Origin: Escherichia coli
GTDB lineage: Bacteria; Pseudomonadota; Gammaproteobacteria; Enterobacterales; Enterobacteriaceae
Length of the DNA: 583 bases
Direction: 5' to 3' (one strand)
NCBI RefSeq assembly: GCF_003334255.1
Contig: NZ_QOWU01000221.1
Each line of letters starts with the position of its first letter. Within the stretch, counting starts at the first letter, position 1. The notes below the pieces were generated by a model, which had not been told where the DNA came from, ran no database searches, and saw only the letters and a list, made by a program, of their open reading frames with translations. Positions 1-504 of the stretch are shown here, piece by piece. A program made the translations under genes and the position numbers.

Positions 1-77
1 TGAGTTACCGGTTCAATATTCCAGACAGACTCGCGGTTCATTTAAGCATCCATGCCCGCCCTGAACTCCGGGCACAC
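1..77 (-). mobile_element. Putative group II intron, 5' terminal fragment (start of domain I); intron continues beyond window position 1
   Basis: Read on the minus strand, the sequence immediately after the IS-derived exon ...GATGTGACCTATA is GTGTGCCCGGAGTTCAGGGCGGG..., matching the group II intron 5' consensus GUGYG and resembling known bacterial intron starts (e.g. Ll.LtrB GTGCGCCCAGATAGGG, recalled from memory). IS911-like coding similarity stops exactly here; the 22 codons read through into this segment end in a stop and do not resemble transposase sequence. No domain V/VI or reverse transcriptase ORF is in the window, so this rests on the terminal motif and context only. Confidence 0.5.
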
Positions 78-78
78 T

Positions 79-504
79 ATAGGTCACATCACCGCACCAC
101 ACCTGATTTGGTTCCGTTACGGCGAACTGTCGCTCAAGATGATTCGGGATAGCAACGTGCTCATGACCGCCACGCTTATACCGGTGAGTCGGCTGCTGGC
201 AACTGACCAGCCCCAGCTCTTTCATGAGTCTGCCAGCAAGCCAGTGCCCCATCTGGTAGCCTCTCCGGGTTGCCATTGTGGCGATGCTTCTTGCTCCGGC
301 AGAGCCGTGGCTGATGCCATGCAGTTCAAGTACCTGGCTGCGTAATACAGCCCGTCTGCCGTCTGGTTTTTCAGGACGGTTTTTCCAGTATCTGTAGCTG
401 CTGCGATGAACCCCGAACACATGGCAGAGTGTGACCACAGGATAATGCGCTCTGAGTTTCCTGATTATCGAGAACTGTTCAGGGAGTCTGACATCAAGAG
501 CGCG
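79..504 (-). pseudogene. insO: IS3-family (IS911-like) transposase OrfB, N-terminal fragment of about 142 codons, truncated after ...VWCGDVTY by the intron-like insertion and cut off from its orfA/frameshift site by IS30
   Basis: Most of this lies within six-frame ORF 13..438 (minus), whose GTG 'start' at 438-436 is internal; the same frame stays open upstream to about 504 (…[23 protein letters not shown]…). Native OrfB is made as an OrfAB fusion by -1 frameshifting, so no independent start is expected. The last IS-derived codon is TAT (79-81); the DDE catalytic core downstream of the first Asp is absent. Symbol insO is by analogy to E. coli K-12 IS911 orfB, from memory. Confidence 0.8.

Follow-up and report, generated by a model that had tools for sequence, protein, structure and literature searches.

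The 141-codon open reading frame (ORF) on the minus strand of the analysed window, a 583-nt stretch of Escherichia coli DNA, is in all probability not a real gene; we read it with high confidence as a chimeric read-through from a dead IS911-type transposase gene into the group II intron E.c.I4, and we found no evidence contradicting this reading. The window represents junction-rich mobile-element debris in the E. coli chromosome beside the fec operon, where an IS911/ISEc52-type element on the minus strand has been struck twice, once by an IS30 insertion and once by an E.c.I4 insertion. The intron would have retrohomed in sense orientation into the conserved G-D-V-T-Y|I codons at the start of the catalytic (rve) domain. 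A six-frame scan takes the first GTG after an upstream stop, follows 120 authentic orfB codons across the 5′ splice site, and reads 20 ribozyme codons before reaching a chance TGA. An initial annotation of the stretch had already proposed a chimera of this kind; its coordinates, length of 141 aa, GTG start and quoted tail were all correct, and the strand, which it left unstated, is minus. The features discussed below are collected in Table 1.

Table 1 Features of the 583-nt window and their continuation in the identical locus of strain A27 (L001)
Feature	Window position	Strand	Remarks
IS911/ISEc52-type IS3-family fragment	78..506	minus	Flanked by IS30 on one side and by the intron on the other
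orfA 3′ end (presumed)	506-465	minus	Stop TAA 467-465; overlaps the start of the orfB frame
ORF, 141 codons/aa	13..438	minus	Very probably a chimeric read-through; GTG start 438-436, TGA stop 15-13 (from the ORF listing)
ORF codons 1-120	79..438	minus	Genuine IS911/ISEc52-type OrfB coding sequence; HTH_21 region and first 13 rve residues
ORF codons 121-141	16..78	minus	Exon base A78, then intron nt 1-62; ribozyme sequence, non-coding, read in frame
Group II intron E.c.I4, first 77 nt (5′ GUGUG...)	1..77	minus	Whole intron 2,270 nt, L001 3808-6077 minus
IS30 left end	507..583	+	Terminal inverted repeat from TGTAGATTCAATTGG; insI start codon 569-571 (MRRTF...)
GT, one copy of the IS30 2-bp target-site duplication	505..506		Other copy after the IS30 right end, L001 10172-10173

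We used as the intact OrfB reference the unbroken 300-aa frame of a related locus (L005), which PGAP labels 'IS3-like element IS911 family transposase'. BLASTP aligned residues 1–120 of the ORF with residues 22–141 of this frame at 117/120 identities (98%), and no alignment to it extended past ORF residue 120, as expected from the earlier assignment of the first 120 or so codons to an IS911-like OrfB. The NCBIfam IS3 transposase model NF033516 matched ORF residues 3–120 at profile positions 105–225 of 369, likewise ending exactly at residue 120, and the score of 106.8 bits lay below the cutoff of 160 for whole-protein membership. Judged by this profile, the ORF is a fragment of an IS3-family transposase and not an intact member of the family, and the same figures bear out the warning that annotating it as an intact transposase would be wrong. 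The split falls exactly between residues 120 and 121: codon 120 is TAT (Tyr; window 81–79 on the minus strand), and codon 121 is AGT (window 78–76), composed of the last exon base, A78, and the first intron bases, G77 and T76.

The sole Pfam domain on the ORF is HTH_21, at residues 32–79, and the unbroken OrfB frame carries HTH_21 at residues 53–100 followed by rve at 129–227. Mapping through the BLASTP alignment assigned ORF residues 108–120 (129–141 of the unbroken frame) to rve, so that 13 residues of this domain are kept, although Pfam made no rve call on the ORF itself. The ORF lacks a complete rve (DDE) catalytic domain, with the second Asp and the Glu missing; the first catalytic Asp of the triad, in W-C-G-D-V-T-Y, is probably retained. 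We take this residue to be the first catalytic Asp from established knowledge of rve/retroviral-integrase folds. The initial description of a helix-turn-helix region with no DDE core was thus right about HTH_21 standing alone in Pfam and about the incomplete rve, and passed over the 13-residue rve stub with its probable first Asp. Its forecast for a BLASTP or HMMER search fared similarly: similarity to the IS3 model and to the unbroken OrfB frame ends at residue 120 and leaves the tail unmatched, while the anticipated coverage of the very start of rve was not called by Pfam and emerges from the mapping. In position, the fragment is N-terminal relative to OrfB and central within the OrfAB fusion transposase. 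The closest intact copies are called ISEc52 by PGAP, not IS911 proper; the annotated ISEc52/IS911 transposases retrieved among the relatives were partial pseudogenes, and DNA identity to a PGAP-named 'IS911 family' copy was ~88% over the 121 nt compared. Upstream of the ORF, window 506–465 presumably encodes the C-terminus of IS911 OrfA, judged by the known IS911 sequence.

The frame upstream of the GTG is open as far as a TGA at 516–514, and on the upstream-extended frame NF033516 matched profile positions 87–225, compared with 105–225 on the ORF. Because both the IS3 transposase homology and the open frame continue upstream, the GTG is internal to orfB, in agreement with the initial annotation; in this sequence context it is just the first start-type codon after a stop within a longer homologous frame. 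The length of the ORF is accounted for by 120 inherited coding codons, and the 20 further intron codons are unremarkable: in random sequence, the chance of 20 codons without a stop is (61/64)^20 ~ 0.38, which suits the earlier view of the TGA as a chance stop. No sigma-70-like promoter was found in the 583-nt window, a Shine–Dalgarno-like motif was absent from the sequence before the GTG (GCGCATTATCCTGTG), and IS30 cuts the fragment off from the native IS911 promoter and orfA start. We infer that no stable protein arises from the 141-codon ORF. Two other calls in the window are probably annotation noise: a 97-aa ORF at 52–345 (+), antisense to orfB, which resembles a shadow ORF, and an 81-nt PGAP partial 'hypothetical protein' pseudogene at 492–572 (+), which straddles the IS911/IS30 junction.

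We then consider the segment downstream of codon 120, which the initial annotation called intron-like and which we identify from its sequence as E.c.I4. In strain A27, whose locus (L001) is identical to the window, the complete element begins with GTGTG and ends with CTCTAC, in agreement with 5′ GUGYG and 3′ AY intron boundaries. Rfam RF00029 (Intron_gpII, domain V/VI) matched over the full model with 64.9 bits (gathering score 40, E = 9e-12) at L001 3808–3894 on the minus strand, a site at the intron 3′ end that directly precedes the C-terminal IS3 fragment and lies outside the window. The intron also encodes the intact reverse transcriptase (RT)/maturase (ltrA) expected of domain IV, with 502 aa at intron nt 672–2180, scoring 341 bits with TIGR04416 against a cutoff of 300. 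RF00029 was the only Rfam family to pass on the full intron, where no group-II-D1D4 family reached threshold, and the 583-nt window alone gave no Rfam match at E-values up to 10, including on its 77 intron bases, which are too short or too unlike the curated 5′-domain families for Rfam. Because no D1–D4 or window match was obtained, the 5′ intron boundary was drawn from sequence comparison and not from a modelled RNA structure.

The comparisons agree across several sources. When the proposed exon junction (...GTGACCTATA|TCTGGACGGG...) is closed, the joined exons read GTG ACC TAT A|TC TGG ACG, giving V-T-Y-I-W-T and an uninterrupted transposase reading. A 260-nt joined-exon query aligned without a break to uninterrupted IS copies, at 100% identity, and 2,790 genomes contained at least 80% of it. 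The boundary is fixed at window 78|77 because an intron-free allele in strain Nissle 1917 runs from there straight into the 3′ exon, and the same position is given by the annotated end of IS911A-1 in K-12 and by the spliced-exon matches. The K-12 match comprised 123 nt of exon and 1,764 nt of intron at 99.7%, and Leclercq and Cordaux (2012; PMC3522654) enter E.c.I4-tr1 of MG1655, in prophage CP4-6, in their supplement as a fragment of 1764 bp. A study of intron ORFs without an endonuclease domain (PMC3552965) assigns that of E.c.I4 to bacterial class A. The absence of an Rfam match in the 583-nt window would also fit a deletion or rearrangement junction past DVTY, with unrelated DNA or another IS beyond it and the tail as random flank. 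That reading is refuted by the domain V/VI match, the RT/maturase above its curated cutoff, the GUGUG and AC termini, the exact rejoining of the flanking exons, the identity of the element with the published E.c.I4-tr1 fragment, and the empty-site allele; it retains practically no probability. The last 21 codons of the ORF are thus read from E.c.I4, as the earlier description of an intron-like segment had implied.

Next, we turned to deposited proteins of the same form. The exact 141-aa sequence is public as EHV68160.1, 'putative transposase insO for insertion sequence element IS911A', and belongs to a cluster of 702 members, some of them named 'DNA-binding protein' or 'HTH-like domain protein'. 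Full-length alignment to a family of intact proteins had been named at the outset as the finding that would overturn the chimeric reading. Full-length 141-aa matches do exist, yet they are automatic gene calls on the same chimeric junction; they do not constitute independent evidence or an intact protein family. In a 14-hit alignment, 11 truncated proteins had bodies 49–98% identical to the ORF and tails 76–100% identical. Even those relatives whose bodies were only 49–65% identical carried tails at 81–100%; P0109 combines a 49% body with a 100% tail, and P0081 a 55% body with a 100% tail. The remaining three hits were uninterrupted relatives with bodies at 94–97%, which continue as IWTGK... 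and are ~20–30% identical over the tail. One mobile intron residing in diverged host IS elements would produce just such a mismatch between body and tail divergence.

The same conservation could be taken as the mark of a real, expressed and domesticated HTH DNA-binding protein, derived from a truncated transposase, that regulates IS911-type transposition, with the tail conserved as a functional part. Such a protein would account for an ORF intact in hundreds of database entries, some of them named as DNA-binding proteins, for a tail strikingly conserved across diverged hosts, and for the HTH_21 domain. However, the conservation of the tail follows the intron and not the host. The Proteus mirabilis contig that encodes P0081 (L007 4258–5528) is 76% identical over the last 90 nt of the exon and then carries 1,182 nt of intron with zero mismatches, up to the point where another IS3-family element cuts the intron off. 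Because a 100% identical intron follows a 76% identical exon, the pattern points to recent spread of one mobile RNA element, not to selection at the protein level. The starts of the homologous ORFs also vary, the homologues are 133 to 154 aa long, and the RefSeq annotation of the locus is a pseudogene in K-12 as well as in the identical strain A27. Together with the GTG internal to a longer homologous frame and the lack of promoter-like and Shine–Dalgarno-like sites, these observations make a domesticated protein highly improbable, and we retain the chimeric read-through.

The Proteus copy would imply that the intron has passed between genera very recently. A blastn match starting 89 nt upstream of the intron had suggested that the exon flank was co-converted in Proteus; we discarded this, since the exon holds all 21 mismatches and the intron none. 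Within E. coli, 2,097 of 5,426 complete genomes (~39%) contained the exon–intron junction, taken as 40 nt from each side, at a coverage of at least 80%, including copies behind ISEc31. The consequence is chiefly one of annotation hygiene, considering the names 'putative transposase insO', 'DNA-binding protein' and 'HTH-like domain protein' that the 702-member cluster carries. Because the final 21 residues are an in-frame reading of ribozyme sequence, the entries of the cluster should not be treated as a protein family, nor the tail as a conserved motif.

To place the intron insertion in its genomic setting, we compared the window with complete chromosomes. Several complete E. coli chromosomes contain the whole window at 100% identity, 1,675 of 5,426 genomes carry at least 80% of it, and the locus in a window-identical genome adjoins fecCDE. 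On the IS911 sense strand, the order in A27 is IS30, the partial IS3 family transposase pseudogene annotated by PGAP (window 79–504), non-coding sequence, ltrA, the C-terminal IS3 fragment, a hypothetical gene and fecE. In Nissle 1917 (L006 1116–1621), the sequence is 100% identical to window 78–583 (506 nt, no gaps) and then passes into the 3′ exon; this is the same fec-adjacent IS30|IS911 locus without the intron, and hence an empty-site allele. The intron is evidently polymorphic at an orthologous IS copy that was already dead, and A27-type strains and Nissle 1917, identical over these 506 nt, offer a clean occupied/empty pair for the study of E.c.I4 homing.

The occupied state might instead derive from another intron-bearing IS911 copy, through homologous recombination or gene conversion, or the Nissle allele might reflect precise loss of the intron. 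Such exchange has partners at hand: the junction recurs, identical over 140 nt, in IS911A of K-12 CP4-6, which occupies another chromosomal locus, several IS911-type copies are present in many genomes (median 2–3 places per genome), and one E.c.I4 copy has been recorded in a chimeric IS629/IS911 host (supplement of PMC3522654). Against this, E.c.I4 is documented as homing site-specifically into IS3-type transposase genes, and the same intron lies behind clearly different exons, which exchange between homologous IS copies leaves unexplained. We infer that retrohoming, not recombination between IS copies, brought the intron here, and consider the recombination or loss history rather unlikely; it would alter the history only, not the identity of the ORF.

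Splicing and retrohoming capacity of E.c.I4 is predicted, with the identical intron copies behind different IS3 exons as indirect support. A search for exact complements to the exon-binding sequences EBS1 and EBS2 returned nothing convincing. A wobble-tolerant search gave one candidate pair of segments, TGTGGGT (intron 263–269), which faces exon positions −7 to −1 with 5 Watson–Crick and 2 G-U pairs, and ACGTCACC (intron 275–282), which faces exon −16 to −9; the order and spacing of both are non-canonical. The target sequence facing these candidate pairings is GGTGATGTGACCTATA. Viewed as one segment, TGTGGGTTGAAAACGTCACC (intron nt 263–282, L001 ~5796–5815 minus) could base-pair nearly without a gap to the final 16 nt of the upstream exon (GGTGATGT GACCTATA); the chance of this pairing is roughly 1e-3, and the order of its segments is the reverse of the canonical EBS2–EBS1. 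Farther into the intron and outside the window, the K-12 small RNA EyeA (b4690; L002 6581–6655, K-12 272580–272654) lies within the E.c.I4 fragment at about intron nt 390–464, in domain I, and may be a stable piece of ribozyme RNA.

At the other end of the IS911-type fragment, window 507–583 matches nt 1–77 of K-12 IS30D without a difference, and PGAP places the start of an IS30 transposase at window 569. IS30 is known for generating a 2-bp target duplication, and the inverted repeat, the transposase start and the 2-bp duplication together identify the element as IS30. It inserted 5 nt downstream of the A-AAA-AAG frameshift heptamer of the IS911-type element, which lies just outside the window (junction at window 505–583, + strand, and L001 10164–10190); with IS30 in this position, the slippery site is severed from everything downstream. 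In A27, this IS30 is itself split at L001 7348–9659 by an IS66-family element comprising tnpA, tnpB and a frameshifted tnpC, so that the IS911 copy there contains the intron and also an IS30 that in turn contains IS66. On the far side of the intron, the 3′ exon of the IS911 copy (L001 3330–3817, minus) has a frameshift in ...VMFHSDQGSHY..., near the second catalytic Asp. Because of this frameshift, splicing would still leave a transcript without the coding sequence of an active transposase. The copy is dead several times over: split by IS30, split by the intron, and frameshifted in its 3′ exon.

We also considered what read-through might mean for live elements of this kind. Unspliced transcripts of E.c.I4-bearing IS911-type elements would yield one invariable product, OrfAB or OrfB cut after the first catalytic Asp and capped with the fixed 21-residue tail. 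As a fragment that binds DNA but is catalytically dead, this product might inhibit IS3-family transposition in a trans-dominant manner, with the conserved in-frame stop 62 nt into the intron under selection and not accidental. If this were true, the intron would damp its host IS besides interrupting the host gene. We consider this a distinctly long shot, and for the window's own copy, which is without orfA, promoter and ribosome-binding site, an inhibitor role is very unlikely.

The feature is ordinary and already described in its counterparts, namely K-12 insO with the ykfC intron fragment and the homing of E.c.I4 into IS3 elements, and its biology is what one expects when an established intron homes into an established IS family. 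The nearest counterpart is insO/IS911A-1 in prophage CP4-6 of K-12 MG1655, where a 140-nt comparison across the exon–intron junction showed no difference and IS911A-1 is annotated as ending at 272190, which coincides with window 78. The K-12 copy is of the same IS911 type and is likewise interrupted by an IS30, which is oppositely oriented relative to IS911, unlike in the window. The CP4-6 intron (E.c.I4-tr1, ykfC) has been shortened to 1,764 bp by IS5, whereas the window-identical genome has the intron at full length with ltrA intact. The two also differ in chromosomal locus: the window matches fec-adjacent copies, and the K-12 insO copy lies in CP4-6. CP4-6 had been a candidate for the window's own locus and was dropped on account of the opposite IS30 orientation there and the match to fec-adjacent loci. 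IS911B, the fec-adjacent copy of K-12, has no intron and carries an extra IS600 fragment.

With respect to E.c.I4 itself, the intron sits in an IS911-type transposase gene as described for this element, and no difference from it was found; the window itself contains only the first 77 nt of the intron. IS911, a member of the IS3 family, has orfA and orfB and produces OrfAB by programmed −1 frameshifting, and the window preserves the orfA C-terminus together with the overlapping orfB frame. The HTH_21 plus rve architecture of IS911 is seen on the unbroken homologue, to which the OrfB part of the window retains 98% protein identity over 120 residues.
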